Positions 236 to 17,184 of a DNA stretch of 23,122 nt are shown in pieces (within the stretch, counting starts at the first letter, position 1; every line of letters starts with the position of its first letter). Position numbers and translations under genes: made by a program. The stretch is from a virus (lineage: Duplodnaviria; Heunggongvirae; Uroviricota; Caudoviricetes), in the IMG/VR virus record IMGVR_UViG_2690316210_000010, positions 1 to 23,122 of that record; one strand, 5' to 3'. The notes under the pieces are model-generated. The model had not been told where the DNA came from, searched no databases, and saw only the letters and a list, made by a program, of their open reading frames with translations.

Positions 236-328
236 TTTGTTTTAACCTCATTACAGATTTAAGGGTGAACAAATCCCTGCCATTGCTGGCATATAAAAAT
301 GAAACCGGATATTTATTACGTGGCTGCT

Positions 329-520
329 TTAAAGACCTGCCGGGACTTCTTTATTATCCTGGTGAATGATTTTATCAACCGGATAACAGTTACCGGGAAT
401 TTTCTGTTCAGCTGCAGCAGCCACGCATTCTTTCATGGAGTTGTATACTCCGGTAACCAGTTCAGCTGGTTCGCCCGTATTAAGAATAACGGTCAGAACG
501 AGTGCAAATGCTGTATTCAT
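329..520 (-). CDS. Small membrane/secreted protein immediately downstream of dicB (YdfD-like by position and length, 63 aa)
   Basis: Start chosen at MNTAFALV (ATG 518-520) overlapping the dicB stop in an ATGA motif, AAGGA Shine-Dalgarno upstream; hydrophobic N-terminus; paralog of 9191..9379. Confidence 0.5.
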   Translation of the reverse strand: MNTAFALVLTVILNTGEPAELVTGVYNSMKECVAAAAEQKIPGNCYPVDKIIHQDNKEVPAGL

Positions 521-705
521 CGCCAGCATCCTTTTTGCATCAGACGCAAACGAGCCAGCATTGAAACAATGCATATTTTATTTAATGACTCCCGTTCGTG
601 TTTTCTCTTGTTAATGGCATCTTCAGTAAATACAGGGTTACTGATAGTGACACCAATTTCAAAACAACCTTCAGACGTATTAACGTTTGGTAATAACGTT
701 TCCAT
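517..705 (-). CDS. dicB: Cell division inhibitor DicB (62 aa)
   Basis: Translation METLLPNVNTSEGCFEIGVTISNPVFTEDAINKRK... matches my recollection of E. coli Qin DicB; GAGGA Shine-Dalgarno upstream; sits downstream of a DicF-like sRNA as in the K-12 dicB operon. Confidence 0.8.
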   Translation of the reverse strand: METLLPNVNTSEGCFEIGVTISNPVFTEDAINKRKHERESLNKICIVSMLARLRLMQKGCWR

Positions 706-715
706 TATCGCGTCC

Positions 716-1273
716 TCAACAATGAATTTTGAGTAATTGCTCTACAGTCATATTTTTAATTGCGCCCCGGTTAACAAGAGTCCATCCCTGTTCTTCCAGA
801 TAAAACCGGAAAGTCTCCATGGTACAGACCCGTGCGCCATCAGGAACGGTTTCGGTGAATCTGATGTTGCCGCGTTCGTCGAAGTGAACAACCAGGGTGC
901 GGCCATCGCCTGGAATTATTTTGTCAGTGGGTGGGGTGTTATTCTGGCGCAGTTCGGCCTCCATGCGATCGAACTCAGCAATGTAGGCTTCTTTAAATGC
1001 AGCGGCTTTTTTGCCAGTGAATCCCATCACCAGGAAAACGAAGCCGTTTTTGGTGATTTGGTACATCGGGCGTTTTTCGCCTTTGGCGTCAGTGTAGGTG
1101 ACGTCCTCAAAATTGAGGGCGTTAAATTCAGGTGAGCATTCAGTATTTGCGATGGCACGTAACACATTGTCGTGACGCTTGCCAAAGAACTCTGCGATCG
1201 CAATAGACGTAGTGACAGCGCGACCATTTTCGATGGTTACGTCAGGGTGAGAAAGGGCAGGGATAGTAGCCAT
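716..1273 (-). CDS. Rha-family phage regulatory protein (antirepressor-like)
   Basis: Start set at MATIPALSHPDVTIENGRAVTTSIAIAEFFGKRHDNVLRAI with GAGGA Shine-Dalgarno; this N-terminal motif is typical of Rha/ORF6N proteins. The ORF track extends to 1570 but that extension overlaps the conserved DicF-flanking repeat. Gene is absent at the equivalent position of P2. Confidence 0.65.
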   Translation of the reverse strand: MATIPALSHPDVTIENGRAVTTSIAIAEFFGKRHDNVLRAIANTECSPEFNALNFEDVTYTDAKGEKRPMYQITKNGFVFLVMGFTGKKAAAFKEAYIAEFDRMEAELRQNNTPPTDKIIPGDGRTLVVHFDERGNIRFTETVPDGARVCTMETFRFYLEEQGWTLVNRGAIKNMTVEQLLKIHC

Positions 1274-1512
1274 GATGGCATCCTCGAGTGATAAGTTAAT
1301 TAACTCACCACCGAGGTTTTCCACGACCATAAGGGTGGTGAGACGTACAGGGGTGGAAATACCGGTCACTCGAGAACCCGGCCAGTCTTGCGACTGCCCT
1401 GCACATCCCACCATAATTTGAATGGAGCTGTGCATTACGCATAAAAAAACCGCTTCAGCGCGGCTATGCGCTCGAGTAACGTTCGGGTTTCCACGCCCGG
1501 CACCCGTTTTAT

Positions 1513-1810
1513 AAGGTGCAGGTGCACTATAATTCCACCCGTTCTGGTTTTCAATAGCTACATTCAACATTTTCTCTTTCCTTTCATCACCGAAGTGAAC
1601 TTTGTTGATGCGGTGCCTGGTGCCTCCAGGTGACGTTAACCAGTTAACAATTAACGCCGGATACAGGGAAACCCATAACCACCCGATACGGGGGAACTAA
1701 TCGCTTTTTAACTGTGCCGCGTGCGCTGAGCCGCATTCACCGCATCACAAAATTCACTTTAAAAAGGGCGGACATCAGCCAGCAATTAAACCGATGCCGC
1801 CAACTGGTAC
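1513..1810. repeat. Direct repeat copy 1 (~300 bp: dicF-dicB intergenic region plus DicF-like gene); near-identical to 3599..3895
   Basis: Visible alignment of 1513-1806 with 3599-3890 with only a few mismatches, diverging at the DicF 5' end; a third, more diverged copy lies at 9590-9800. Confidence 0.8.
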
Positions 1811-1816
1811 TTCACA
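1761..1816 (-). ncRNA. DicF-family sRNA variant (P0)
   Basis: Minus-strand sequence ends ...GGCGGCAUCGGUUUAAUUGCUGGCUGAUGUCCGCCCUUUUU, keeping the DicF GGCGG..CCGCC terminator and U-tail, but the 5' and internal sequence differ from canonical DicF. Ends are approximate. Confidence 0.4.
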
Positions 1817-1879
1817 CAGCAATGTCGTTATTTACAACCGGAGGCGCACTCCCACCATTTAAATTTAACAGACAAGACC

Positions 1880-2517
1880 GGTGATGCTGCCAACTTACTG
1901 ATTTAGTGTATGATGGTGTTTTTGAGGTGCTCCAGTGGCTTCTGTTTCTATCAGCTGTCCCTCCTGTTCAGCTACTGACGGGGTGGTGCGTAACGGCAAA
2001 AGCACTGCCGGACATCAGCGCTATCTCTGCTCTCACTGCCGTAAAACATGGCAACTGCAGTTCACTTACACCGCTTCTCAACCCGGTACGCACCAGAAAA
2101 TCATTGATATGGCCATGAATGGCGTTGGATGCCGGGCAACTGCACGCATTATGGGCGTTGGCCTCAACACGATTTTACGTCACTTAAAAAACTCAGGCCG
2201 CAGTCGGTAACCTCGCGCATACAGCCGGGCAGTGACGTCATCGTCTGCGCGGAAATGGACGAACAGTGGGGCTATGTCGGGGCTAAATCGCGCCAGCGCT
2301 GGCTGTTTTACGCGTATGACAGTCTCCGGAAGACGGTTGTTGCGCACGTATTCGGTGAACGCACTATGGCGACGCTGGGGCGTCTTATGAGCCTGCTGTC
2401 ACCCTTTGACGTGGTGATATGGATGACGGATGGCTGGCCGCTGTATGAATCCCGCCTGAAGGGAAAGCTGCACGTAATCAGCAAGCGATATACGCAGCGA
2501 ATTGAGCGGCATAACCT
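1880..2517 (+). mobile_element. IS1, 3'-truncated (left inverted repeat through mid-insB)
   Basis: Begins with the IS1 terminal repeat GGTGATGCTGCCAACTTACTGATTTAGTGTATGATGG; insA and insB recognisable; IS1 sequence stops after ...GAGCGGCATAACCT, where IS3-family sequence takes over. Confidence 0.85.
1935..2210 (+). CDS. insA: IS1 InsA
   Basis: 91-aa translation [42 protein letters not shown]... matches IS1 InsA. Confidence 0.9.
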
Positions 2518-2701
2518 TTTAGGACAATGGGTTACCGCCGCCAGAAAAGGGCTCGGTACTCCTGGTTCCCGCACGGTGGCTGAACTGGAATCTGAAATTC
2601 TGCAACTGCGTAAGGCGTTAAATGAAGCTCGCCTTGAGCGAGATATATTAAAAAAAGCAACAGCGTATTTTGCACAGGAGTCGCTGAAAAATACGCGTTA
2701 A
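2129..2701 (+). pseudogene. insB: Chimeric ORF: IS1 InsB (first ~129 aa) fused in frame to the C-terminal ~60 aa of an IS3-family OrfA
   Basis: Translation follows InsB up to ...[14 protein letters not shown], then continues [60 protein letters not shown], a typical IS3-family OrfA C-terminus. Confidence 0.75.
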
Positions 2702-3598
2702 TCGAACAATGGCGACAACAATTTCCCATTGAAGCGATGTGTCAGGTATTTGGTGTATCCAGGAGCGGTTATTACAACTGGGTACAGCATGAACCCTCAG
2801 ACAGAAAACAAAGTGATGAGCGGCTAAAACTGGAGATTAAGGTGGCACATATCCGCACTCGCGAAACATATGGAACCCGGCGGCTCCAGACGGAGCTGGC
2901 AGAGAATGGCATCATCGTTGGTCGTGACCGACTGGCACGTCTTCGTAAGGAGCTAAGGCTACGCTGTAAGCAGAAACGCAAGTTCAGAGCGACTACGAAC
3001 TCGAACCACAATCTGCCAGTTGCGCCAAATCTGCTGAACCAGACGTTCGCTCCTACAGCACCAAATCAGGTCTGGGTGGCGGACCTGACGTATGTTGCCA
3101 CACAGGAGGGATGGTTGTACCTCGCTGGCATCAAAGATGTTTATACGTGCGAAATTGTCGGCTACGCCATGGGAGAGCGCATGACAAAAGAGCTGACAGG
3201 TAAAGCCCTGTTTATGGCGCTCAGGAGCCAGCGCCCACCTGCCGGGCTAATCCACCACTCTGATCGAGGTTCACAGTACTGCGCATACGATTACCGGGTC
3301 ATACAGGAGCAGTCTGGTCTGAAAACATCAATGTCGCGTAAAGGTAACTGTTACGACAACGCTCCGATGGAAAGCTTCTGGGGAACGCTGAAAAATGAGA
3401 GCCTGAGCCACTATCGTTTTAATAACCGGGATGAAGCCATCTCAGTAATACGGGAATACATTGAGATTTTCTACAATCGTCAGCGTCGTCACTCTCGTCT
3501 GGGGAATATCTCCCCGGCAGCCTTCAGGGAAAAATATCATCAGATGGCTGCTTAAAAAAAGAACAAATGGTAGTGTCCGCTATTGCCAGTACACCTCA
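2518..3598 (+). mobile_element. IS3-family element (IS600/IS911-like), 5'-truncated, right end intact
   Basis: OrfA C-terminus, A-run slippery motif near 2647-2656, OrfB in the -1 frame, and a right end ...GTACACCTCA consistent with an IS3-family terminal CA. Exact IS name not verified. Confidence 0.7.
2737..3555 (+). CDS. IS3-family transposase OrfB (DDE catalytic domain); coordinates are the first in-frame ATG, natively expressed by -1 frameshift from OrfA
   Basis: 272-aa translation with DDE-transposase hallmarks (...WVADLTYV..., ...HHSDRGSQYCA..., ...CYDNAPMESFWGTLK...). Confidence 0.8.
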   Translation: MCQVFGVSRSGYYNWVQHEPSDRKQSDERLKLEIKVAHIRTRETYGTRRLQTELAENGIIVGRDRLARLRKELRLRCKQKRKFRATTNSNHNLPVAPNLLNQTFAPTAPNQVWVADLTYVATQEGWLYLAGIKDVYTCEIVGYAMGERMTKELTGKALFMALRSQRPPAGLIHHSDRGSQYCAYDYRVIQEQSGLKTSMSRKGNCYDNAPMESFWGTLKNESLSHYRFNNRDEAISVIREYIEIFYNRQRRHSRLGNISPAAFREKYHQMAA

Positions 3599-3895
3599 AA
3601 GGTGCAGGTGCACTATAATTCCACCCGTTCTGGTTTTCAATAGCTACATTCAACATTTTCTCTTTCCTTTCATCACCGAAGTGAACTTTGTTGATGCGGT
3701 GCCTGGTGCCTCCAGGTGACGTTAACCAGTTAACAATTAACGCCGGATACAGGGAAACCCATAACCACCCGATACGGGGGAACTAATCGCTTTTTAACTG
3801 TGCCGCGTGCGCTGAGCCGCATTCACCGCATCACAAAATTCACTTTAAAAAGGGCGGACATCAGCCAGCAATGAAACTGATGCCGCCAAAGGTAC
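3599..3895. repeat. Direct repeat copy 2 (dicF-dicB intergenic region plus DicF-like gene), abutting the IS3-family right end
   Basis: Aligns with 1513-1810; starts immediately after the IS3-family terminus. Confidence 0.8.
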
Positions 3896-3902
3896 CAATC
3901 AA
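3847..3902 (-). ncRNA. DicF-family sRNA variant (P1)
   Basis: Minus strand reads UUGGUACCUUUGGCGGCAUCAGUUUCAUUGCUGGCUGAUGUCCGCCCUUUUU: DicF-like terminator and U-tail with a divergent 5' region. Ends approximate. Confidence 0.4.
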
Positions 3903-4087
3903 CATGGAGTGTTGTGGCGTGGTTGTCACTTAAGCGTATGGTCAACCTGACAACCCGGTGTCCTCAACGGGGAAGGAATAACTCCGCCATACTTACCGCC
4001 GCGTCATTTCGCGTTGTGTGCCTGCTTTTAACCACGTCAGGCGAGGTGGTATCCTTCTTATCCCGAATAACCAAGAAGGAAATCTAT

Positions 4088-4288
4088 ATGACTAAAGAAG
4101 AATTTGTCTCTTATATTTTTGATAAAACGGTTGAAATGTATGCCGCTACTTACGGGTCCTGTAATCCTCTGAATAAACCAGAGGGAAAAGATGATTTCGA
4201 CAAAATTTACCGCTTCTTGGAGGACCGCTATATCAAAAGCTTAGAGGACGCAGGGATCAAATCCCCAGTGAAGTCACCATTGTCCTGA
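4088..4288 (+). CDS. Hypothetical small protein (66 aa) in the variable cassette, antisense to the dicB operon
   Basis: ATG at 4088 with AAGGA Shine-Dalgarno; 3' end overlaps the convergent gene 4257..4634 by 32 nt; no homolog recognised; P2 has an unrelated gene at the same position. Confidence 0.4.
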   Translation: MTKEEFVSYIFDKTVEMYAATYGSCNPLNKPEGKDDFDKIYRFLEDRYIKSLEDAGIKSPVKSPLS

Positions 4289-4634
4289 GAACTTGCAGAA
4301 CGTCATGATCATAACTTCCATCCAAACCGCGACGGCGAATTGCTTCTCGTATTACCGGAAGCAGTTCGCTGGAAATCTCGGTGCATATTTCACCTGATAA
4401 TACGCTTGGCTCAAGTGAGAATATTGGTGAACTTACGGTCTTGGTCTCGACAGTTTCAGAGTCAGTGCCAACATTATAAAGCTCAACGAAAGCGGTCTTG
4501 ATTTTCCGGGCCAGATCTTTTGCTGGCTCGCTTGCAATATCTTTCCCGATTTCTCGCAGCACAGAATGCAATGTATGAGCTGCTGTTTTCTGTACATCAG
4601 ACGGTAAATCTTTAAATTCCATCGTCAGCCTCAT
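4257..4634 (-). CDS. Hypothetical protein (125 aa), variable-cassette gene translationally coupled to the ydfA-like gene
   Basis: Start ATG overlaps the upstream stop (TGATG); first 11 aa MRLTMEFKDLP are identical to the P2 gene 10374..10787, after which the proteins are unrelated. Confidence 0.5.
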   Translation of the reverse strand: MRLTMEFKDLPSDVQKTAAHTLHSVLREIGKDIASEPAKDLARKIKTAFVELYNVGTDSETVETKTVSSPIFSLEPSVLSGEICTEISSELLPVIREAIRRRGLDGSYDHDVLQVLRTMVTSLGI

Positions 4635-4786
4635 CAGTCAGTGTTTCTGGCTAACCAGCAACGCGCGCCAGATTCGGTTTTAAACGTTTTGCTTTTGGTA
4701 TACGTCATGGCGGTAAACGTTCCATCCTGGTTAGGGAACACGCCGCACACCAGAGATTCGTTGTTGCCAAGATCGATAGTATCCAT
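4634..4786 (-). CDS. YdfA/YdaF-like small protein (~50 aa)
   Basis: MDTIDLGNNESLVCGVFPNQDGTFTAMTYTKSKTFKTE... with GAGG Shine-Dalgarno; first gene after the repressor-side promoter, as ydfA/ydaF in Qin/Rac; near-identical paralog at 10787..10939. Confidence 0.6.
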   Translation of the reverse strand: MDTIDLGNNESLVCGVFPNQDGTFTAMTYTKSKTFKTESGARCWLARNTD

Positions 4787-4966
4787 GCTGACCTCATTTC
4801 CCCTTAACGCCGGGGTGGCGGAACAAAAAACCTGCTGCATAGTTAAAGATTGAACCCTGCCGTCATGTTCTTACGCCTCGGGCTGGCTACTTAACCCCTG
4901 ACCACTGTCTGGTAACTCGAAGTATTGCCCTGCATTCTGTGGGGCGGGGTGGGTTGACGCCTGAAA

Positions 4967-5008
4967 CAATAGCATCATTATTTTTTGATGTAAATAGCAT
5001 CGCTATTG
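4967..5008. promoter_or_regulatory. Operator-like inverted repeats (OL-like) of the P1 immunity region
   Basis: AATAGCATCGCTATT (perfect inverted repeat) and a degenerate copy AATAGCATCATTATT; same motif recurs beside the repressor start at 6103-6143. Confidence 0.45.
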
Positions 5009-5024
5009 TTTTTGTTGGGGCAAG

Positions 5025-5050
5025 AAAAAACCACCCTAAGGTGGTTCTGT
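5025..5050 (-). terminator. Rho-independent terminator after the repressor-antitoxin-toxin operon
   Basis: Minus strand reads AACCACC-TTAG-GGTGGTT followed by TTTTTT, just downstream of the ParE-like gene. Confidence 0.6.
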
Positions 5051-5062
5051 CGGCGGGAATAA

Positions 5063-5353
5063 TTAACTGTTTTTGCCTGGATACTGTCTTCGAGAATGCA
5101 CAATATTTACTACTTCTATGCTTGATGCTGTTACTCGGTAAAGGATGATGTAGTTAGGATGAGTTACAATTTCACGAAGACCAAGAACTCGCTCGCTTGG
5201 AGGATACAGGTAAGGATGCTCTGTGAGCGGCAAAACGGATGTTTCAATTCGAATTTTCATTCTGCGTGCTGCCGCGGGATTTTCTTTAGCTATGTAGGCT
5301 ACGATCTGGCGCAAATCATCACGAGCAGATGGTAGCCATAAAACGGGTAACAT
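5063..5353 (-). CDS. ParE/RelE-superfamily type II toxin
   Basis: 96-aa translation MLPVLWLPSARDDLRQIVAYIAKENPAAARRMKIRIE...YIILYRVTASSIEVVNIVHSRRQYP fits the ParE pattern; start overlaps the upstream antitoxin stop (TAATG). Confidence 0.7.
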   Translation of the reverse strand: MLPVLWLPSARDDLRQIVAYIAKENPAAARRMKIRIETSVLPLTEHPYLYPPSERVLGLREIVTHPNYIILYRVTASSIEVVNIVHSRRQYPGKNS

Positions 5354-5547
5354 TATTCACCTCTGTGAGTTGCAGCAGCAATTTGGGCAATAATTTGTTC
5401 CATTTCCGCCATTACCTCATCATGCGGAATCGCCGGGCGGGGATCCGCGAGGCTTGCTGCTACTTTGGCCCGCAGCCATTCGTTGTAACTATTTTCTTGC
5501 TCAACTGTCTCAAATTCTGAAACCATTGGGGAAAGGACTGTACTCAT
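5353..5547 (-). CDS. Type II antitoxin (ParD/CC2985-like) paired with the ParE-like toxin
   Basis: 64-aa acidic protein ...YNEWLRAKVAASLADPRPAIPHDEVMAEMEQII...; AGGAG Shine-Dalgarno; translationally coupled upstream of the toxin. Confidence 0.55.
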   Translation of the reverse strand: MSTVLSPMVSEFETVEQENSYNEWLRAKVAASLADPRPAIPHDEVMAEMEQIIAQIAAATHRGE

Positions 5548-5566
5548 TTTACATATCTCCTCTGAT

Positions 5567-6067
5567 TTAGGCGCGACGGCCTTTTTGTGCAGCTAACCAC
5601 CGCGCAACCGTACGATCCATTGATTCTTTTTTATCTTTCATCTCCTGAAGCATGTGTTCTTGATCTTCTTTCGGAAAAGCTCTGAACGTATGGATTAAAT
5701 CTCGTTCCATCGGCTCTACGGCAAACGGTAGTTCATCCTCTGTTTGTTCTGTGTCTGCTGGTAATGCGACTATGTTATCTTGCTGTGGTTCTCGACAATA
5801 CATCCTTGCAATTTGCAGCAAATCTACCATGTCTGGCCTGATTGACTCAGGGGGAACTTTCAGTAAGCCAGCAAACTTTAGTACAGCCTCAAGGTTTAGT
5901 GGGGTTTGACCATTTAGGTAGTGACTTACCGCCCCTTGTGTTGAAAACCCCATAATTTCCGCCGCACGTTCCTGAGTCAATCCCAACTGAGATTTCTTTG
6001 CCATCCAGATTTCTTTCAGTCTTCTGGCGGCGTTGAGGTCGGTGTCTGACAATGATTTTCTTTTCAT
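5567..6067 (-). CDS. CI-like HTH repressor without a recognisable S24 peptidase domain
   Basis: Start chosen at MKRKSLSDTDLNAARRLKEIWMAKKSQLGLTQERAAEIMGF..., which resembles the lambda CI N-terminal domain; the C-terminus shows no Ser/Lys peptidase motif; divergent from the Cro-like gene. Confidence 0.7.
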   Translation of the reverse strand: MKRKSLSDTDLNAARRLKEIWMAKKSQLGLTQERAAEIMGFSTQGAVSHYLNGQTPLNLEAVLKFAGLLKVPPESIRPDMVDLLQIARMYCREPQQDNIVALPADTEQTEDELPFAVEPMERDLIHTFRAFPKEDQEHMLQEMKDKKESMDRTVARWLAAQKGRRA

Positions 6068-6080
6068 ACATCCAATTCTA

Positions 6081-6146
6081 ATAAGATTGCTAATCACTTT
6101 GAAATAGCATCACTATTTACTTTTAAAAATAACAGTGCTATTAATT
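6081..6146. promoter_or_regulatory. OR-like operator/promoter region between the divergent repressor and Cro-like genes (P1)
   Basis: Operator repeats AATAGCATCACTATT (6103-6117) and AATAACAGTGCTATT (6129-6143); candidate rightward promoter -35 TTTACT (6116-6121), 17-bp spacer, -10 TATTAA (6139-6144). Confidence 0.45.
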
Positions 6147-6178
6147 ATGCATTGGTAACACATCACATAGGGCGGATT

Positions 6179-6442
6179 ATGAATCTTGGAGAATATTTGC
6201 ATCATTTTCATATAACCCAGAGTTCATTTGCTGAGATTGTTGGCGCATCCCAAGGGATGGTCAGCCACGTTATAACGGGGCGTGCAAAACTTACAGGAGA
6301 AAAAATATTACGTTGGTGTGAAGCAACGGGATGGGTGGTGACCCCACATGAGATTGACAGTAAAACCTACCCCAACCCAACTGACGGCTTGCCTGCTGAG
6401 TTTCAGGCTAACACACAACCATCGGCGGGGGTTGATTCATGA
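6179..6442 (+). CDS. Cro/YdaS-like HTH regulator
   Basis: MNLGEYLHHFHITQSSFAEIVGASQGMVSHVITGRAKLTGEKILRWCEATGW...; divergent from the repressor; stop overlaps the next gene start. Confidence 0.6.
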   Translation: MNLGEYLHHFHITQSSFAEIVGASQGMVSHVITGRAKLTGEKILRWCEATGWVVTPHEIDSKTYPNPTDGLPAEFQANTQPSAGVDS

Positions 6443-6864
6443 AAATCAAGCATGAACACATCCGCATGGCGATGAAAGCCTGGGCGCATCCGGACGGTGA
6501 AAAAGTTCCGGCAGCTGAAATAACCAGGGTTTATTTCGAACTGGGAATGACGTTTCCGGTTCTGCATAACGACAGCAAGCACAACACGCTTTATCTCAAC
6601 ACCCAAAAGATTTTCCGTTGGCTGGATAAAGACACCCCTGACGCTGTTGAAAAAATTCAGGCGTTGTTACCTGCGATCGAAAGGGCAATGCCACCTCCGC
6701 TGGTGGCTCGAATGCGCAGCCACAGTTCAGCTTATTTTCGGGAACTGGTGGAGACGCATGAACGACTGGTGAGAGACGCTGATGATTTTGTCGCAGTGGC
6801 AATCGCCGGTTTCAATCAGATGAACCGTGGTGGCCCGGCAGGAAATGCTGTGGCAGTACATTGA
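6439..6864 (+). CDS. YdaT-like protein (141 aa)
   Basis: MKIKHEHIRMAMKAWAHPDGEK...; position after the Cro/YdaS-like gene and length match Rac YdaT; paralog at 11990..12415. Confidence 0.6.
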   Translation: MKIKHEHIRMAMKAWAHPDGEKVPAAEITRVYFELGMTFPVLHNDSKHNTLYLNTQKIFRWLDKDTPDAVEKIQALLPAIERAMPPPLVARMRSHSSAYFRELVETHERLVRDADDFVAVAIAGFNQMNRGGPAGNAVAVH

Positions 6865-6935
6865 CTGACAATAGCCATATCGAATCGCTCCCGGCAACTC
6901 GTGAGTAAAAAGATTCGGTATCAGAAGAGGTGAGT

Positions 6936-7976
6936 ATGGCTAACGCCTGGCTCAGATTATGGCATGACATGCCAAATGACCCTAAGTGGCGAACAATTGC
7001 CAGGGTGTCAGGGCAGCCAATTGCAACAGTGATGGCAGTGTATATCCACCTCCTGGTGAGCGCGTCACGAAATGTCACGCGAGGTCACATTGATGTCACG
7101 ACAGAAGATTTGGCAAGTGCGCTCGACGTGACAGAAGAGGTAATTGATTCAATTTTGCAGACGATGCAGGGGCGGGTACTTGATGGTGATTTAATCACTG
7201 GATGGGAAAAACGCCAGGTGCTTAAAGAGGACAACGGCAATATTTCGCAAACCGCAAAATCTCCTGCAGAGCGCAAGAGGGCGCAGCGAGAGAGGGAAAG
7301 AAAGCGGGAACAAAATGGCGATTGTCACGGCGCGTCACGAAATGTCACGCACATGTCACGACGAGTCACGACAGATACAGATAAAGATACAGATAAAGAA
7401 GATCAAAACACTATGGTCCATGGCGTAAAAAACGCCACGAACCAGGCAGGGGATGTTCAGACCGTCAATCCTGGTCAGCCAGCAGGCTCGACACCGGAAG
7501 CCGATTCGGGCGCTGTGCAGCAGGTGATGACCGCAAGGCCGGAGCAATCACTCCAACTGCAGCAGCCTGAAGCCGATTCCGCCATTCAGCGGGAAGCCGA
7601 TCGGGTAGCCCCGGAAAACACCGGGCAGCCTGTGGGACGAGTGGATTATCCGGATGTGTTCGAACAGGTCTGGCGGGAATACCCGTTGCGTGCCGGGGCA
7701 AACCCGAAGAAATCCGCATTCAGTGCCTGGAAGGCCAGATTGCGCGAGGGGGTGCCACCAGAGACCATGCTGGATGGTGTGAGGCGTTACGCGAGATACC
7801 TGGCGGCGACCGGGAAAGCGGGAACGGAATTTGTTCAGCGAGCGACGACGTTTTTTGGGCCGGACCGGAATTTTGAAAACCCCTGGTTGCTCCCGGTAAG
7901 CGGCACGAACAACCAGCGTTGTGTGAATCATATTTCTGAACCGGATACCGAAATTCCGCCGGGATTCAGGGGGTGA
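6936..7976 (+). CDS. Replication initiator (lambda O / YdaU-like) with embedded origin iterons
   Basis: ATG 6936 with GAGG Shine-Dalgarno; precedes the DnaC-like gene; contains GTCACG iteron arrays; C-terminal 20 aa identical to the otherwise unrelated P2 initiator. Confidence 0.6.
   Translation: MANAWLRLWHDMPNDPKWRTIARVSGQPIATVMAVYIHLLVSASRNVTRGHIDVTTEDLASALDVTEEVIDSILQTMQGRVLDGDLITGWEKRQVLKEDNGNISQTAKSPAERKRAQRERERKREQNGDCHGASRNVTHMSRRVTTDTDKDTDKEDQNTMVHGVKNATNQAGDVQTVNPGQPAGSTPEADSGAVQQVMTARPEQSLQLQQPEADSAIQREADRVAPENTGQPVGRVDYPDVFEQVWREYPLRAGANPKKSAFSAWKARLREGVPPETMLDGVRRYARYLAATGKAGTEFVQRATTFFGPDRNFENPWLLPVSGTNNQRCVNHISEPDTEIPPGFRG
7061..7099. repeat. Iteron set 1: four GTCAC(G) repeats at 10-11-bp phasing inside the O-like gene
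   Basis: GTCAC at 7064, 7074, 7084 and 7095. Confidence 0.6.
7324..7410. repeat. Iteron set 2: five GTCACG repeats at 10-11-bp phasing followed by an AT-rich tract; putative replication origin
   Basis: GTCACG at 7324, 7334, 7344, 7355 and 7365, then ATACAGATAAAGATACAGATAAAGAAGATCAAAACA. Confidence 0.6.
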
Positions 7977-7982
7977 TGTGGC

Positions 7983-8729
7983 ATGAAAAACATTGCGGCA
8001 GCCGGGGTTCTTGAACGTATTCACAGACTTGCACCACAGGGGGCGGTTCCACCGTACCGGACGGTGGAGGAGTGGCGGGAATGGCAACTTGCTGAAGGAC
8101 GAAAACGCAGCGAGGAGATTAACCGCCAGAATCGCCAGTTGCGGGTGGAAAAAATCCTGAATCGTTCGGGCATCCAGCCTCTGCACAGCAAATGCTCGTT
8201 TGCGAATTATCAGGTGCAGAACGACGGGCAAAAATACGCGCTGAGCCAGGCCAAATCCATAGCTGACGAACTGATGACCGGGTGCACGAATTTTGTGTTC
8301 AGCGGTAAAACCGGCACCGGGAAAAATCACCTTGCAGCGGCGATGGGTAACTGGCTGATGGCGAAGGGGCGCAGCGTGATTATCGTCACCGTGTCTGATG
8401 TCATGAGCGTGTTGCATGACAGCTACGACAACGGCAAATCCGGTGAAAAATTTTTACAGGAGCTTTGCGGGGTTGATTTGCTGGTCCTGGATGAAATAGG
8501 CATTCAGCGGGAGACGAAAAACGAGCAGGTGGTATTGCACCAGATAATTGATCGCCGGACAGCATCACTGTGCAGTGTCGGGATGTTAACAAACCTGAAT
8601 CATGCCGCAATGAGTACGCTTCTTGGTGAGAGGATTATGGACCGCATGACCATGAACGGTGGTCGATGGGTGACGTTTAACTGGGATAGCTGGCGTTCAA
8701 ATGTCAGCTTTCCGGGAGTTGTGAAGTAA
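7983..8729 (+). CDS. DnaC-like AAA+ helicase loader (YdaV-like, 248 aa)
   Basis: Walker A FSGKTGTGKNHLAAAMG and Walker B DLLVLDEIG; about 97% identical at protein level to 13407..14153. Confidence 0.8.
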   Translation: MKNIAAAGVLERIHRLAPQGAVPPYRTVEEWREWQLAEGRKRSEEINRQNRQLRVEKILNRSGIQPLHSKCSFANYQVQNDGQKYALSQAKSIADELMTGCTNFVFSGKTGTGKNHLAAAMGNWLMAKGRSVIIVTVSDVMSVLHDSYDNGKSGEKFLQELCGVDLLVLDEIGIQRETKNEQVVLHQIIDRRTASLCSVGMLTNLNHAAMSTLLGERIMDRMTMNGGRWVTFNWDSWRSNVSFPGVVK

Positions 8730-9095
8730 TTTTTGTTGAACCATGACAGCGTTCTGTACTTCAGGGGCCAGCTTGTCAAAAGTGACGTTCATCGGATCTG
8801 ATTCAGTCTCAACCGGGACAAAGGAAGCAGACTCCTCATCCCAGCGGTTTTCCTGCATATATTCAGCATCCCAGGAATCGAGGGCAGGGCGGGGTATACC
8901 GGGTTTATCCTCGCAAACAAGAAATTTATAAGCGCAGTCCTGAGCTGCAGGGAATTGCTCCAGAAATTGCCAATGAAATTTTGCGCGTGCGCGACGCTCA
9001 TCACCGGCTTCAATGGCAGTGGCCACCGCAACAGCGCTATCTTCTTTTATGGCCTGTTCATCAGGAATAGCAGCGCAAATAAAGACCTTACTCAT
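8697..9095 (-). CDS. Prophage early-left-operon hypothetical protein (132 aa), possibly YdfE-like by position; 3' end overlaps the P1 DnaC-like gene
   Basis: Minus-strand ORF MSKVFICAAIPDEQAIKEDSAVAVATAIEAGDERRARAKFHWQFLEQFPAAQD...; last ~11 codons lie antisense inside the DnaC-like 3' end, so the C-terminus may be junction-derived. Confidence 0.5.
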   Translation of the reverse strand: MSKVFICAAIPDEQAIKEDSAVAVATAIEAGDERRARAKFHWQFLEQFPAAQDCAYKFLVCEDKPGIPRPALDSWDAEYMQENRWDEESASFVPVETESDPMNVTFDKLAPEVQNAVMVQQKLLHNSRKADI

Positions 9096-9190
9096 TTTGT
9101 TTTAACCTCATTACAGATTTCAGGGTGAACGAATCCCTGCCATTGCTGGCATTTTTAATCCGTTGGTATGGTGTTAATATGGCTGGAAGG

Positions 9191-9379
9191 TTATCCAGCC
9201 GGTGTTTCGTTATTCAGGTACAGCGATACTTTTTTTAGCGGGAGGCATTCACCAGAAATTTTTTGCTCGTCTCTTGCCTGGAGGCAGGATTCTTTACTTG
9301 CATAAATTCCGGTAATCACATTCTGTGATTCACCCGTTATAAGAAAAACCGTCATCATCAGTGCAAATGCTGAAGTCAT
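9191..9379 (-). CDS. Small membrane protein downstream of dicB (YdfD-like)
   Basis: MTSAFALMMTVFLITGESQNVITGIYASKESCLQARDEQKISGECLP...; start overlaps the dicB-like stop (ATGA); paralog of 329..520. Confidence 0.5.
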   Translation of the reverse strand: MTSAFALMMTVFLITGESQNVITGIYASKESCLQARDEQKISGECLPLKKVSLYLNNETPAG

Positions 9380-9564
9380 TGACGTTCTCCGAAAATACCA
9401 AGTTCAAGAAGAGCAATTCGGGAAAGTATGGAATTATCATTGAGCAGATAAGGCTCATATTTCCTCATATTAATGGCATCTTCAGTAAACTCCCGGTTAC
9501 TGAGCAGAACACCAATATCAAAACAACCTTCAGACGTATTAACGTTTGGTAATAACGTTTCCAT
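9376..9564 (-). CDS. dicB: DicB-like cell division inhibitor with a divergent C-terminal half
   Basis: N-terminal 35 aa METLLPNVNTSEGCFDIGVLLSNREFTEDAINMRK resemble DicB; the C-terminal half differs from the P0 copy. Confidence 0.65.
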   Translation of the reverse strand: METLLPNVNTSEGCFDIGVLLSNREFTEDAINMRKYEPYLLNDNSILSRIALLELGIFGERQ

Positions 9565-9742
9565 TATCGCGTCCTCAACAATGAATTTTGTGATGCAGTG
9601 CCTGGTGCCTCCAGGTGACGTTAACCAGTTAACAATTAACGCCGGGTTAGTTGATGCTCGTTACGCCCGTAAAATACCGCCTTACTGCTTTAACTGTTCC
9701 GCGTGCGCATAGCCGCATTCACCGCATCACAAAATTCACTTT

Positions 9743-9800
9743 AAAAAGGGCGGCAGAGCAGTCACGGAGTAAAACTGATACCGCCAAATGTCACCAGAAA
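9743..9800 (-). ncRNA. dicF: DicF sRNA (canonical-type)
   Basis: Minus strand reads UUUCUGGUGACAUUUGGCGGUAUCAGUUUUACUCCGUGACUGCUCUGCCGCCCUUUUU, matching my recollection of E. coli DicF apart from about one base; located between the ydfA-like/variable genes and dicB as in Qin. Confidence 0.8.
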
Positions 9801-10135
9801 ATTGATAACAGAGGGCGTTGTAGCGGGGTTGTCACTTAAGCGTATGGTCAACCTGACAACCCGGTGCATTTTCTGGAGCAATGGAGGAAACCCCAGCCAT
9901 ACTTACCGCCGCGCCATTTCGCGGAGTGCCACAACCGGAAGCGCACGGTCGAACTAAATTTAACGACACCGTACAGAGAGACCAATTTCGCCGTGCGCTT
10001 TCGCGTTATGCCCTGACTTTTCAGGGACATATCCTTTCAGTAAGCTGTCAGTGCCGGATGCTCACCCGTGTCCGGCGCACGCACTCCACCTGACCCGTGG
10101 AGAACTCCTTAATTACCAACCCTCAGGAGGGTGAA

Positions 10136-10414
10136 ATGGATAAAAAGCAAATTGAGGCCCTGCAATCTATTATTGAAGAACAAGATGAAGCTATCAGGAT
10201 TCTTTCATATCGCACTGATATGATACTAAATATGCTTTCTGCATTAACGGCTGCGCTTGGTGGTACAAAAACAAACGTATACCGCGAAGTTGTTATTCAA
10301 CAGATAGATAAATTTGAAAAAACCATACCAGGTATTAATGCTCATCTTGCAGAACAAGAGAAAGACCATGCTCTTATGGCAATTTCTTCAGTAGCTCTCC
10401 CGAAAGTTGAGTAG
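10136..10414 (+). CDS. Hypothetical protein (92 aa) in the P2 variable cassette, antisense to the dicB operon
   Basis: ATG 10136 with AGGAGG Shine-Dalgarno; MDKKQIEALQSIIEEQDEAIRILSYRTD...; unrelated to the P1 gene at 4088..4288; 3' end overlaps the convergent gene by 41 nt. Confidence 0.4.
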   Translation: MDKKQIEALQSIIEEQDEAIRILSYRTDMILNMLSALTAALGGTKTNVYREVVIQQIDKFEKTIPGINAHLAEQEKDHALMAISSVALPKVE

Positions 10415-10787
10415 TTTTAATTGTTGTTTTGAAATAATCACTGCTTTCACATTTGAGTGATTTCATGGCAATCCAAATGCGGGCCTCTGTGCCTGCATTT
10501 GGTTCCAGTTGCTGTAGACGTTTTGCGTCTTCCAAAAGTAAGGCGATAATGTGTTTCAGCTTCTCATCATTTGCTTGATTCTTGTTTTCAGGCGAATTCT
10601 GTCCGCCGAATAGGCGCTTCTCTTCATACAGACCTATAAAGGCACGACGCACGTTACCGGATATAGTATCGATGGTTTCCTTTTCTACGGTACTCAGGTC
10701 AAGAGTCGCCAGTTGAGAGCGAACCACATTCGATGCCATTTCCTGGAATGGTACTGGTAAATCTTTAAATTCCATCGTCAACCTCAT
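10374..10787 (-). CDS. Hypothetical protein (137 aa), P2 variable-cassette gene coupled to the ydfA-like gene
   Basis: Shares only MRLTMEFKDLP with the P1 gene 4257..4634, then diverges completely; start overlaps the upstream stop. Confidence 0.5.
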   Translation of the reverse strand: MRLTMEFKDLPVPFQEMASNVVRSQLATLDLSTVEKETIDTISGNVRRAFIGLYEEKRLFGGQNSPENKNQANDEKLKHIIALLLEDAKRLQQLEPNAGTEARIWIAMKSLKCESSDYFKTTIKTTQLSGELLKKLP

Positions 10788-10939
10788 CAGTCAGTGTTTC
10801 TGGTTAACCAGCGACGCGCGCCAGCTTCAGTTTTAAACGTTTTGCTTCTGGTATACGTCATCGCGGTGAACGTACCGTCCTGGTTGGGGAACACGCCACA
10901 TACCAGAGATTCGCTGTTGCCAAGATCGATAGTATCCAT
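10787..10939 (-). CDS. YdfA/YdaF-like small protein
   Basis: MDTIDLGNSESLVCGVFPNQDGTFTAMTYTRSKTFKTEAGARRWLTRNTD; near-identical to 4634..4786. Confidence 0.6.
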   Translation of the reverse strand: MDTIDLGNSESLVCGVFPNQDGTFTAMTYTRSKTFKTEAGARRWLTRNTD

Positions 10940-11124
10940 GCTGACCTCATTTCCCCTTAACGCCGGGGTAGCGGAACAAAAACCTGCTGCATAGTTATTA
11001 AAGTTGAACCCTGCCGTCATGTTCTTACGCCTCGGGCTGGCTACTTAACCCCTGACCACTGCCTGGTAACTCGAAGTATTGCCCTGCATTCTGTGGGGCG
11101 GGGTGGGTTGGTATGAAAAGAAGG

Positions 11125-11167
11125 ATACCCATAGGTATTTAAAAAGTAAATACCCATGGGTAAATTT
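11125..11167. promoter_or_regulatory. OL-like operators with candidate leftward early promoter (P2)
   Basis: Palindromes ATACCCATAGGTAT (11125-11138) and TACCCATGGGTA (11151-11162); on the minus strand a TTTACC / 16-17 bp / TTAAAT promoter-like arrangement overlaps them. Confidence 0.45.
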
Positions 11168-11204
11168 TTGCGGTGTCTTAACTGGTGACTAGTTGTTTGG
11201 TGAG

Positions 11205-11624
11205 CTATGATGCGTTTTGTGCTTTCTTTTTACGGATTTCTTCGTAGATCATATTGTAATACTGTTTTTTCTCTTCAAGAGTTTTTAATAATTTATCCGC
11301 TTCACTTTCTGGCAGTTCGTCTAAGAGATCTAAAAAAATACGTTGTCGTGGCGTTAGAACCCTTGTTTCATAACTGGAGGCTGTGTTCGTTGATGATGAA
11401 ACGATACCATCCATCCATCCCCGGGGTAACCCAAAGGACTCTTCGATAATCTCCACCATATCATCAGCGATCCGTTTTTTTCCCTTTTTCCCCTCTGGGT
11501 ACAACATTCTTGATACATAAGAAGGCTCGCGCCCGATCTTTCTGGCCACGTTAACCGCTTTACCATCGCATTTCTCATCACGAATTTTGATGAGTTGCTG
11601 TCGTCTAAATTCATATTTGTCCAT
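11205..11624 (-). CDS. HTH repressor of the P2 immunity region (RacR/DicA-like position)
   Basis: Start chosen at MDKYEFRRQQLIKIRDEKCDGKAVNVARKIGREPSYVSRML... (HTH); divergent from the Cro-like gene; flanked by operator-like repeats. Confidence 0.6.
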   Translation of the reverse strand: MDKYEFRRQQLIKIRDEKCDGKAVNVARKIGREPSYVSRMLYPEGKKGKKRIADDMVEIIEESFGLPRGWMDGIVSSSTNTASSYETRVLTPRQRIFLDLLDELPESEADKLLKTLEEKKQYYNMIYEEIRKKKAQNAS

Positions 11625-11701
11625 AGGTAAATAATAGATGCGATTACCGCAAGGTAAACAACCTGTGGGTATTGACATTTGTTTACCTGTGGGTATTCTT
11701 T
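11623..11701. promoter_or_regulatory. OR-like operators and candidate rightward promoter for the P2 Cro-like gene
   Basis: Repeated TGGGTA-containing half-sites (ACCTGTGGGTAT twice, CATAGGTAAAT); -35 TTGACA (11673-11678), 16-bp spacer, -10 TATTCT (11695-11700). Confidence 0.45.
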
Positions 11702-11724
11702 GCTGTGTTTACTAAGGAGTAGCT

Positions 11725-12006
11725 ATGGAAGAATTAAGAATATTTCTCAATTCTCTTTCGTCAGATGAACAGCGTATGTTTGCATGCGAGTGTGGTACCA
11801 GCATCGGTTATCTAAGAAAGGCATTGAGTAAAGGTCAAGTGTTAGGGGCATCGTTATGTGTCCTTATTGAGCGAGCCAGTAATGGTGAAGTTACACGTCA
11901 GCAACTAAGGCCTTTTGATTGGATGAATATTTGGCCCGAGCTGGAAGATACCAAAACGTTAACACAACCACTTTCTAGGAGCTTGATTCATGAAAATCAA
12001 GCATGA
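11725..12006 (+). CDS. Cro/YdaS-like HTH regulator (P2)
   Basis: AAGGAG Shine-Dalgarno; ...ECGTSIGYLRKALSKGQ...TRQQLRPFDW...; 3' end overlaps the YdaT-like start. Confidence 0.6.
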   Translation: MEELRIFLNSLSSDEQRMFACECGTSIGYLRKALSKGQVLGASLCVLIERASNGEVTRQQLRPFDWMNIWPELEDTKTLTQPLSRSLIHENQA

Positions 12007-12415
12007 ACACATCCGCATGGCGATGAATGCCTGGGCGCGTCCTGATGGCGAAAAAGTTCCAGCAGCTGGAATAACCCAGGCTTATTTTGAGTTGGGTATG
12101 ACGTTCCCAGAACTGTATGACGACAGCCATCCGGAAGCCCTGGCTCGCAATACCCAGAAAATTTTCCGCTGGGTAGAGAAAGACACCCCTGATGCTGTTG
12201 AAAAAATGCAGGCTCTGTTACCGGCGATCGAAAAGGCGATGCCGCCTTTGCTGGTGGCCCGTATGCGCAGCCACAGTTCTGAATATTACCGTGAGATCGT
12301 CGAACGGAGGGATCGGCTGGTGAAGGATGTCGATGATTTTGTTGCGTCAGCGGTTGTTTTGTATGACCAGATGAATCGCGGCGGCCCGGCAGGGAATGCT
12401 GTGGTGATGCACTAA
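11990..12415 (+). CDS. YdaT-like protein (141 aa, P2)
   Basis: MKIKHEHIRMAMNAWARPDGEK...; paralog of 6439..6864. Confidence 0.6.
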   Translation: MKIKHEHIRMAMNAWARPDGEKVPAAGITQAYFELGMTFPELYDDSHPEALARNTQKIFRWVEKDTPDAVEKMQALLPAIEKAMPPLLVARMRSHSSEYYREIVERRDRLVKDVDDFVASAVVLYDQMNRGGPAGNAVVMH

Positions 12416-12437
12416 AAGCACGGTGTTCGGGGGTTTT

Positions 12438-13400
12438 ATGAGCAGCAAGCTTCATGGTCTTGTCTGGGAAGGGTGCGCCTTCACCGGCATGATCTTATCC
12501 AGGGTGGCGGTTATGGCCCGTCTTGCAGACTACAGCAATGACGAGGGCGTGTCATGGCCTGCCATTGAAACTATCCGGCGTCAGATCGGTGCAAGAAGTG
12601 AATCCACAGTGAAATCGGCTATTGCAGAACTGGCGAAAGAGGGCTGGCTGACGAAGGAAGAGCGTAAGGTCGGTGGGCGTAATGTAAGCAATATCTATCG
12701 GCTTAATGTGGAAAAACTCGAAGCAGCTGCGGCGGCGGCGCGTGAGTCATATAAACCGAAAAGAAAAATTAGCCCGGCAAAAAATGACCCGTTAACAGTT
12801 GACCCGTCAAATATTGACCCCTCAACGGTTGACCCGTCAAATTTTGATGGATCAACTGTTGATAAAAAACTGCCGATTAGGGGGGCGATGATTGACCCCG
12901 ATCCGTCAGTATTAAAACCTGATCCGTCAGATAAAAGATCTTCTTGTCCGGACGCTTCGCAACCGGACCCGCAGACGGCTGAACAGGATTTTTTAACCCG
13001 ACACCCTGACGCGGTTGTGTTCAGTGCGAAAAAACGCCAGTGGGGAAGTCAGGAAGATTTGGTGTGCGCACAGTGGATCTGGGGACGAATCGTGAGTCTT
13101 TACGAGCAGGCGGCCAGCTATGATGGCGAGATCACTAGACCGAAAGAACCCAACTGGACAGCATGGGCCAATGACGTTCGCACAATGCGGATGCTGGATG
13201 GCAGAACTCACAGACAAATTTGTGAAATGTTTGGGCGTCTCCAGCGGGATTCGTTCTGGGTAAAAAACATCATGAGTCCGGCAAAACTCCGGGAAAAATG
13301 GGATGAACTGGTTATCCGCCTGGGGCGTTCGCCTGCGCAGCGTTGCGTGAATCACATTTCTGAACCGGACACTGAAATACCGCCGGGATTCAGGGGGTGA
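12438..13400 (+). CDS. Replication initiator (lambda O-like) with an N-terminal winged-helix domain and embedded iterons
   Basis: ATG 12438; N-terminal HTH-like region (...VSWPAIETIRRQIGARSESTVKSAIAELAKEGWL...); TTGACCCGTCAA iterons in a linker; last 20 aa identical to the P1 initiator. Confidence 0.6.
   Translation: MSSKLHGLVWEGCAFTGMILSRVAVMARLADYSNDEGVSWPAIETIRRQIGARSESTVKSAIAELAKEGWLTKEERKVGGRNVSNIYRLNVEKLEAAAAAARESYKPKRKISPAKNDPLTVDPSNIDPSTVDPSNFDGSTVDKKLPIRGAMIDPDPSVLKPDPSDKRSSCPDASQPDPQTAEQDFLTRHPDAVVFSAKKRQWGSQEDLVCAQWIWGRIVSLYEQAASYDGEITRPKEPNWTAWANDVRTMRMLDGRTHRQICEMFGRLQRDSFWVKNIMSPAKLREKWDELVIRLGRSPAQRCVNHISEPDTEIPPGFRG
12783..12860. repeat. Origin iterons: four to five TTGACCCGTCAA-like repeats at 15-bp spacing inside the P2 O-like gene
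   Basis: TGACCCGTTAAC (12783), TTGACCCGTCAA (12798), TTGACCCCTCAA (12813), TTGACCCGTCAA (12828), then a degenerate TTGATGGATCAA. Confidence 0.6.
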
Positions 13401-13406
13401 CGTGTC

Positions 13407-14153
13407 ATGAAAAACATTGCGGCAGTTGGGGTTCTTGAACGTATTCGCAGACTTGCACCACAGGGGTCGGTTCCACCGTACCGGACGGTGGAGGAGTGGC
13501 GGGAATGGCAACTTGCTGAAGGACGAAAACGCAGCGAGGAGATTAACCGCCAGAATCGCCAGTTGCGGGTGGAAAAAATCCTGAATCGTTCGGGCATCCA
13601 GCCTCTGCACAGCAAATGCTCGTTTGCAAATTATCAGGTGCAGAACGACGGGCAAAAATACGCGCTGAGCCAGGCCAAATCCATAGCTGACGAACTGATG
13701 ACCGGGTGCACGAATTTTGTGTTCAGCGGTAAAACCGGCACCGGGAAAAATCACCTTGCAGCGGCGATGGGCAACCGGCTGATGGTGAAGGGGCGCAGCG
13801 TGATTATCGTCACCGTGTCTGACGTCATGAGCGTGTTGCATGACAGCTACGACAACGGCAAATCCGGTGAAAAATTTTTACAGGAGCTTTGCGGGGTTGA
13901 TTTGCTGGTCCTGGATGAAATAGGCGTTCAGCGGGAGACGAAAAACGAGCAGGTGGTATTGCACCAGATAATTGATCGCCGGACAGCATCACTGTGCAGT
14001 GTCGGGATGTTAACAAACCTGAATCATGCCGCAATGAGTACGCTTCTTGGTGAGAGGATTATGGACCGCATGACCATGAACGGTGGTCGATGGGTGACGT
14101 TTAACTGGGATAGCTGGCGTCCAAATGTCAGCAATATGAGGGTTGTGAAGTAA
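13407..14153 (+). CDS. DnaC-like AAA+ helicase loader (YdaV-like, P2)
   Basis: Walker A and B motifs; near-identical to 7983..8729. Confidence 0.8.
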   Translation: MKNIAAVGVLERIRRLAPQGSVPPYRTVEEWREWQLAEGRKRSEEINRQNRQLRVEKILNRSGIQPLHSKCSFANYQVQNDGQKYALSQAKSIADELMTGCTNFVFSGKTGTGKNHLAAAMGNRLMVKGRSVIIVTVSDVMSVLHDSYDNGKSGEKFLQELCGVDLLVLDEIGVQRETKNEQVVLHQIIDRRTASLCSVGMLTNLNHAAMSTLLGERIMDRMTMNGGRWVTFNWDSWRPNVSNMRVVK

Positions 14154-14174
14154 TTTTGTCCGGAGGAAATTTTA

Positions 14175-17146: not shown

Positions 17147-17184
17147 ACTCCTGCTGTGTAACACCGTGCCACCGGAGAAAGCCG

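Follow-up and report, generated by a model that had tools for sequence, protein, structure and literature searches.

Unrelated initiators with in-gene repeats and a shared DnaT-type tail in two Rac-type prophage replication modules

The DNA analyzed here is a 23,122-nucleotide stretch from a virus of the Caudoviricetes (IMG/VR record IMGVR_UViG_2690316210_000010, positions 1 to 23,122; hereafter the window, always meant at its full length). It carries two replication initiator genes, P1 and P2, each standing directly upstream of a gene for a DnaC-like helicase loader (Table 1). Comparison of the window with itself resolved two partly homologous prophage early regions, back to back, at ~1-8733 and 8861-14157. 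Both are closed by the same gene order: a Cro/YdaS-like helix-turn-helix gene, a YdaT-like gene, an initiator gene and a gene for a 248-residue IstB/DnaC-type ATPase. The modules are two Rac-type lambdoid prophage replication units, in adjacent prophage remnants. A first-pass annotation of this DNA had placed a replication origin inside each initiator gene, and had read the pair as a modular swap of the origin-binding part that kept the interface to the helicase loader. Our analyses bear out the repeats behind the first proposal and the modularity behind the second, and they qualify the interface.

Two initiator genes and the repeats within them

The P1 protein matches a replication initiation family of the PHROG database over its full length, and PHROG 'replisome organizer' families only weakly (E = 2e-5 and 4e-4), though NCBI records name its relatives 'phage replisome organizer'. 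It has no match in Pfam, and hence none to HTH_36. AlphaFold2 gave a poor model of full-length P1 (predicted local distance difference test, pLDDT, 53.5), with no PDB match at E < 1. The P2 protein scored 27.9 bits against HTH_36 (PF13730), over the cut-off of 25, and its N-terminal domain is a predicted winged helix. At a coverage of at least 80%, P1 occurs in 1647 and P2 in 1514 of 5426 complete E. coli genomes.

Table 1. Features of the window discussed in the text, with their positions in window coordinates
Feature	Position	Strand	Remarks
IS1-type open reading frame	2129-2701		
IS3-family integrase-core open reading frame	2737-3555		
Cro/YdaS-like helix-turn-helix gene, module 1	6152..6442	+	weak Pfam HTH_3 match; position of ydaS or cro in related loci
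YdaT-like gene (CII position), module 1	6439..6864	+	Pfam YdaT_toxin, 36.9 bits; DNA 78% identical to 11983-12404
P1 initiator, 346 residues	6936..7976	+	phrog_3729 'replication initiation protein', full-length match, E = 6e-240
P1 iteron array 1	7064..7100	+	GTCACG/GTCACA x4, 10-11 bp spacing: GTCACG at 7064, 7074, 7095, GTCACA at 7084 (spacing 10, 10, 11)
P1 iteron array 2	7324..7370	+	GTCACG x5 at 7324, 7334, 7344, 7355, 7365 (spacing 10, 10, 11, 10)
A+T-rich tract with tandem GATACAGATAAA x2	7371..7429	+	putative unwinding region
P1 C-terminal helical domain, C1	7635..7913	+	AlphaFold2 helices at residues 240-314
DnaT-type tail of P1, QRCVNHISEPDTEIPPGFRG	7914..7973	+	predicted disordered (AlphaFold2)
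DnaC-like helicase loader, copy 1	7983..8729	+	NF009043, 502 bits (cut-off 389); IstB_IS21
YdaS-like gene, module 2	11725..12006	+	Pfam YdaS_toxin, 25.8 bits, under the cut-off of 30
YdaT-like gene, module 2	11990..12415	+	Pfam YdaT_toxin
P2 initiator, 320 residues	12438..13400	+	N-terminal winged helix (HTH_36), iteron linker, C2 domain, tail
P2 iterons, five palindromic 12-bp TTGACCCGTCAA-type units	12784..12855	+	spacing exactly 15 bp; starts at 12784, 12799, 12814, 12829, 12844
2x GATCCGTCAG, A+T-rich spacer and three GATC sites	12891..12945	+	putative unwinding region; mosaic joint follows
DnaT-type tail of P2	13338..13397	+	protein identical to P1 tail; predicted disordered (AlphaFold2)
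DnaC-like helicase loader, copy 2	13407..14153	+	13338-14157 97% identical to 7914-8733

As the first-pass annotation had described, the P1 gene contains two arrays of GTCACG repeats at helical phasing and an A+T-rich tract. The arrays lie 260 bp apart, array 1 in a stretch that maps to a variable, low-confidence loop of the N-terminal domain, and a single inverted GTCACG copy follows at 7127-7132. Of the 16 exact GTCACG copies in the window, nine are packed into 307 bp, where 0.14 would be expected (Poisson P ~4e-14). Directly after array 2 the G+C fraction drops to 0.35 (7370-7429), and a mosaic joint sits just past this tract. The GATACAGATAAA unit within it (7373-7396) encodes DTDK; its copy number varies across the P1-type genes of our collection (L004-L083), which is why these genes range from 1041 to 1107 nt in length.

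In the P2 gene, the 15-bp spacing that had been noted earlier was confirmed for five palindromic units, with a degenerate sixth at 12769. The G+C fraction is 0.40 at 12760-12879, and there is a further A+T-rich spacer at 12910-12945. The GATC-rich stretch near 12900-12945 resembles the 13-mers of oriC.

These repeats are DNA-level elements. The P1 hexamer occurs in all three codon phases (encoding VT, SR or H) and is therefore not a peptide repeat. In 5000 resamplings of P1 with synonymous codons, the hexamer arose 0.78 times on average and at most 5 times; the gene has 8. The repeat layout is kept in 47 of 47 distinct P1-type genes from IMG/VR, which differ only in the number of GATACAGATAAA units. 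The strongest test came from two distant relatives (L084 and L086, 46-49% identical to P1), which have two arrays at the same positions and with the same 10-11 bp phasing, but in which the core has switched from GTCACG to GTAACG in both arrays together; an AGATAA-rich tract again comes after. Similarly, the 15-bp period is retained, with the sequence drifting, in four relatives of P2 (L180-L183, from Salmonella, Morganella, Klebsiella and Erwinia). All four have a GATCCGTCAG-type pair, exact in L180 and L183 and with one copy varied in L181 and L182, its two motifs being 18-21 bp apart with an A+T-rich spacer between them. The repeats that the first-pass annotation pointed out were thus present in the related prophages, and an A+T-rich tract adjoins them in every P1 and P2 relative examined. 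The initiators of phage HannyBb, the YdaU type of the Rac prophage and a Citrobacter type have repeats of their own at the same linker position; POCJ13 gp16, in which we looked for repeats and found none, was the only exception among the initiator types examined.

Partial matches in E. coli genomes break just past the iterons (P1 gene positions 1-458 and 470-1041; in the P2 gene, starts at 463-496, and 496-961), so the N-terminal domain is passed on together with its repeats. This co-inheritance, together with the concerted change of iterons, gives indirect support to the idea that each initiator may bind its own iterons and that the segment may replicate autonomously. The iterons and A+T-rich tract within each initiator gene have the layout of a lambda-type origin, with 4+1 and 5 iteron copies in P1 and 5-6 in P2, all inside the coding sequence. 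We infer from this arrangement that each gene contains an origin, as had been proposed.

A tail shared with DnaT and the adjoining loader genes

BLASTP aligned the P1 and P2 proteins over their last 20 residues only, where they are identical (20/20). A profile-profile comparison of their C-terminal domains, C1 and C2, found no significant similarity (hhalign with shallow alignments, E = 0.62). The two initiators are thus unrelated outside the tail, as the earlier reading had it, and homology does not run throughout the proteins. C1 is also found in POCJ13 gp16, there behind a different N-terminus.

At the DNA level, homology between the modules opens exactly at the first tail codon (7914 and 13338) and ends at 8733 and 14157, four bases beyond the loader stop codon. 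Identity within this block is 97%, and within the tail there are five synonymous and no non-synonymous differences. At least three mosaic joints can be placed: one follows the iterons, one precedes the tail and one falls at the stop codon. Both loader genes start 6 nt after the initiator stop codon, and the near-identity of the two that the tails abut was confirmed. Over its full length the loader shares 48% identity with E. coli DnaC, but it scores 300 against the DnaC equivalog NF005931, under the cut-off of 357; it is therefore a DnaC paralogue and not host DnaC. Among relatives, loader alleles form groups of 99-100% and 96%. Intragenomic gene conversion was considered as the source of the 97% identity and set aside as unneeded, both alleles circulating widely with their own initiators.

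PDB sequence searches with either initiator retrieved DnaT by its C-terminal end (2ru8, 6aep and 9zbt chain D), and the DnaT model NF002770 matched P1 and P2 over its last 21-24 positions only (18.2 and 16.7 bits, cut-off 201). E. coli DnaT ends in …VSEPDSQIPPGFRG, its VNTVSEPDSQIPPGFRG aligning with VNHISEPDTEIPPGFRG of P1 and P2 (longer form, RDVNTVSEPDSQIPPGFRG). The gene dnaT lies directly upstream of dnaC in E. coli, in the order of the phage modules, and in P1 and P2, too, the C-terminal motif ...VSEPDxxIPPGFRG is directly followed by a dnaC-type gene. By this comparison of sequence and gene order, the shared tail is the C-terminal motif of DnaT. The likeness is confined to it: neither initiator matched the three-helix single-stranded DNA (ssDNA)-binding domain of DnaT (PF17948), and C1 and C2 found no support as remote homologues of the DnaT C-terminal domain (hhalign E = 0.012 and 0.53).

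The residues S, P, I, P, G, F and G never vary across 37 distinct tail sequences, and at five of the seven sites they are spelled by 3-4 synonymous codons; constant residues with varied codons indicate selection on the peptide. The last codons behave differently. AGG GGG (7968-7973 in P1) doubles as the Shine-Dalgarno site of the loader gene, and TTC AGG GGG, 9 nt before the loader ATG, is nearly invariant as DNA (TTC in 37 of 37, AGG in 33 of 37). A rare arginine codon, AGG or AGA, followed by GGG forms the loader's Shine-Dalgarno site both in the phage modules and in the host dnaT-dnaC pair (L179, 2479-2500). Recoding of AGA532 of E. coli dnaT to CGU has failed, the ribosome-binding site of dnaC being weakened (bioRxiv 10.1101/069385).

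The tail was found in 45 phage records, all of Escherichia, Shigella, Salmonella or Klebsiella. In all but three, the gene that bears it is annotated as a replication, initiator or primosomal protein; the exceptions are two bacterial contigs, whose match is host DnaT, and one gene annotated 'pyocin large subunit'. A text search of the literature library for 'PPGFRG' found no paper, and a paper on the 'Eru' replication type of Stx phages makes no mention of iterons or of loaders of this type.

Tail type, loader type and the role of the tail

We compared tail and loader types across ~290 related phage and prophage loci, drawn from closely related enterobacterial prophages. DnaC-like relatives were collected at 126 loci, 121 of which have an upstream open reading frame (ORF); a contig scan with the loader as query yielded nine loci. 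The upstream ORF ends in IP[PDE]GF[RK]G at 120 of the 121 DnaC-like loci. This ending is absent from all 83 ORFs that precede a lambda-P-like gene; these end instead in HWN(S/T)xEAWENTL, (F/L)NNTDWI.. or similar. A Fisher test of the association gave P = 2e-57, a value uncorrected for kinship that overstates the number of independent events because the loci are related. The tail-bearing ORFs upstream of DnaC-like genes belong to at least five unrelated N-domain families and three C-domain families, Rac YdaU included.

More telling than the pooled test are the contrasts within families. N1, the N-terminal domain of the P1 type, precedes DnaC-like genes in relatives whose tails end in IPDGFRG or IPEGFRG. 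With an LDCxxW tail, it precedes lambda P instead, in Serratia joined to a C1-like domain and in O157-type prophages joined to a true DnaT-like PF17948 domain. Initiators with N2 and C2, the domains of the P2 type, precede lambda P when they bear WNTPEGWRDVL, HWNSPEAWENTL or IDGIEDDLVNAGVLP tails. These switches within families show that the tail, rather than the C-terminal domain, tracks loader type, and with the survey counts they support the proposal of a modular swap in which a loader-matched element is kept. The initiators paired with lambda P (L087, L088, L180, L181, L183 and L184-L263) have conserved tails of their own, LDCxxW..DD, HWN(S/T)xEAWENTL and (F/L)NNTDWI..., which look like a parallel set of loader-matching peptides.

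A common plan would account for both initiators. Each would consist of an N-terminal domain for sequence-specific DNA binding (in P2, a winged helix), a segment whose coding sequence holds the iterons and A+T-rich tract, a helical C-terminal domain and a disordered tail of 17-20 residues, P1 having an extra array in the loop of its N-terminal domain. The initiator would oligomerize on the iterons and open the A+T-rich tract. The DnaT-type tail might then deliver or accept a DnaB-DnaC-type complex of helicase and loader, in which either the DnaC paralogue of the phage or the DnaC of the host could serve as loader, and DnaB would be loaded. Recombination would shuffle the N-terminal domain with its iterons, the C-terminal domain, the tail and the loader gene independently, with the tail staying matched to loader type. 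Taken as a whole, this explanation (Rac-type modules, origins within the genes and a tail directed to DnaB-DnaC) is the best that we can offer, and we hold it to be likely, with an appreciable chance that some part is wrong. Physical contact of the tail with loader or helicase is the part that we deduce from the pairing of tail and loader types.

Several observations weigh against it. The survey counts are not phylogenetically independent. Among 170 tail-bearing initiators the next gene is DnaC-like in 120 and lambda P in none, but it is Ren-like in 46. In a sample obtained with C1 plus tail as query, P1-type initiators without a downstream loader outnumber those with one by 40 to 13, and the complete phage Tritos carries the gene of a tail-bearing P1-type initiator but no DnaC-like or P-like gene anywhere. 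No loader gene lies downstream of the initiator in HannyBb, or of a Klebsiella prophage initiator with a ..LPENSGFRS tail. A tail kept where there is no phage loader gene means that the phage DnaC-like protein is not an obligatory partner. The tail's role as a helicase-loader interface, as first proposed, thus stands insofar as the tail tracks loader type, and falls insofar as it was tied to the phage-encoded loader; the partner is probably DnaB-DnaC in general, with host DnaC substituting where the phage brings none. For DnaT itself, no interaction with DnaC is documented (review, PMC5778457), and a 2026 structural study of the preprimosome proposes its N-terminal domain, not the tail, as the recruiter of DnaB/DnaC (PMC13377028). 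Finally, the end of the tail doubles as the loader's ribosome-binding site, which explains part of the linkage.

The main rival is that the tail is an assembly or ssDNA element: it would drive self-oligomerization of the initiator and cooperative binding to ssDNA, or dock on PriA, with no contact to helicase or loader, and it would follow DnaC-type loading because that route needs an ssDNA-bound filament. Truncations tie the C-terminal region of DnaT to oligomerization and cooperative ssDNA binding, residues 84-153 binding ssDNA more weakly and less cooperatively than residues 84-179 (PMC5778457, PMC4132743), and the C-terminal domain of DnaT assembles into filaments on ssDNA and docks on PriA through a hydrophobic interface that is conserved (PMC13377028). 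Retention of the tail where the phage loader is absent fits as well. What this account explains poorly is that the tail is swapped, on the same C-terminal domains, exactly when the downstream loader is of the lambda-P type. Moreover, where the three-helix PF17948 domain itself is present, in O157-type initiators, it is paired with lambda P and has no GFRG tail behind it, from which it follows that the tail, and not the ssDNA-binding domain, tracks DnaC. We rate an assembly or ssDNA role as rather unlikely, though the DnaT findings sustain it.

A second alternative makes the link between tail and loader an operon artefact, in which signals for ribosome binding and translational coupling, together with a patch for recombination, keep the two together with no protein interface. 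The near-invariance of TTC AGG GGG as DNA and the result of recoding dnaT AGA532 speak for such a signal, and mosaic joints do lie on both sides of the tail. Positions -13 to -4, however, are conserved as residues with 3-4 synonymous codons each, and the two tail copies in the window differ at synonymous sites alone. Even where no loader gene follows, in phage Tritos and at 46 loci, the tail stays intact, and it is kept across host and phage systems whose loaders are 48% identical. We consider this alternative improbable. Least probable is that the repeats are peptide motifs or chance, with the true origin elsewhere or missing from the remnants: the P2 units are in frame and encode (T/N)(V/I)DPS repeats, and both modules sit in defective prophages riddled with insertion sequences, but the P1 hexamers use three codon phases far above what the protein sequence requires, their core changes in concert in two arrays 260-280 bp apart, and the conserved A+T-rich tract, the co-inheritance of N-terminal domain and repeats, and the lambda origin layout all argue for DNA elements.

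The wider interest lies in the tail. Published accounts still leave unexplained how DnaT recruits DnaB-DnaC when replication restarts (PMC5778457, PMC13377028), and a 17-residue motif common to DnaT and at least five unrelated families of phage initiators offers a specific hypothesis for how that complex is engaged. We put forward, tentatively and as something more doubtful than probable, that the ...SxPDxxIPPGFRG tail may be the element by which DnaT hands DnaB-DnaC to the loading site, captured or donated by many unrelated enterobacterial phage initiators, whose origins it would connect to DnaC-type loading. Were that so, the host dnaT-dnaC operon would be a remnant of a phage initiator-loader pair that has lost its origin-binding part. 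At a practical level, tail type is a simple rule by which to predict the loader of an enterobacterial prophage. The window itself represents ordinary, tidy lambdoid module shuffling and is of use mainly for annotation: the genes are currently labeled 'hypothetical', 'helix-turn-helix domain-containing' or 'replisome organizer', though each contains a putative origin.

Surroundings of the modules and comparison with known systems

The tandem arrangement of modules seen in the window was found in 0 of the 5426 complete E. coli genomes; the closest protein match of P1 is in Shigella boydii. Module 1 stops at 8733, 4 nt past its loader gene, and next comes a 3' fragment of a recE-like gene, 8739-8798 matching the exonuclease VIII of phage HannyBb. 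Upstream, a 291-bp direct repeat (1513-1803 and 3599-3889, 99.3% identical) flanks the IS1-type and IS3-family ORFs. Downstream of module 2, within the prophage late-early region, lies a gene for epoxyqueuosine reductase QueH (15540-16226). Three tandem units of ~2.18 kb, 97.8-99.2% identical, occupy 17168-22663; each contains a DUF1367 gene and a DUF1133/antiterminator-Q-like ORF, which in one unit (20131-21492) is fused with IS3-type transposase domains.

The architecture of the modules and their shuffling follow the classical lambdoid pattern and are already known. In lambda, the N-terminal domain that binds the iterons and the C-terminal part that couples with the loader lie on either side of the origin, and these domains are exchangeable among lambdoid phages. 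As in the lambda O/ori-lambda/P system and its phi80 and P22 analogues, an initiator gene precedes a loader gene and the putative origin lies inside the initiator coding sequence (the O/P order and ori-lambda are summarized in PMC5509034). The differences from lambda are several: P1 and P2 have no Phage_rep_O match (PF04492) at E <= 0.01; a DnaC-type AAA+ ATPase takes the place of lambda P as loader; the iterons form two arrays 260 bp apart in P1 and 12-bp palindromes every 15 bp in P2; and the element matched to the loader is a short disordered tail with homology to the DnaT C-terminus. In SPP1, the origin lies within the organizer gene. Organizers of the SPP1 G38P type (Pfam Phage_rep_org_N, PF09681-type) share their NCBI name with the relatives of P1, but the loader family differs.

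Closer in order is ydaS-ydaT-ydaU-ydaV of the Rac prophage in E. coli K-12, whose DnaC-like gene is 80% identical to that of the window. Its YdaU-type initiator (L092, 285 residues) has its own repeats at 33-bp spacing and terminates in VNTVSLPDSAIPPGFRG, as does the ydaU product of the phage Rac record (H148). The N- and C-terminal domains of this initiator cluster separately from those of P1 and P2 and are unrelated to them. With the E. coli dnaT-dnaC pair the modules share gene order, the tail, a loader 48% identical and the use of the final arginine-glycine codons as a ribosome-binding site. DnaT differs in having neither a sequence-specific DNA-binding domain nor iterons, and it works with PriA/PriB at abandoned forks.

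That O-like proteins can bear DnaT-derived C-termini was already recognized by Brezellec et al. in 2017 (PMC5509034). In the DopC/DopE system described there, DopC is an O-like protein with an HTH_36 N-terminus and the DnaT C-terminal motif, which is the architecture of P2. DopC, however, is chromosomal, has a lambda-P-like partner and lacks iterons, whereas P2 has iterons and a DnaC-like partner. Set beside these systems, the main value added here is that the tail is the end of DnaT and that it pairs strictly with DnaC-type rather than lambda-P-type loading.

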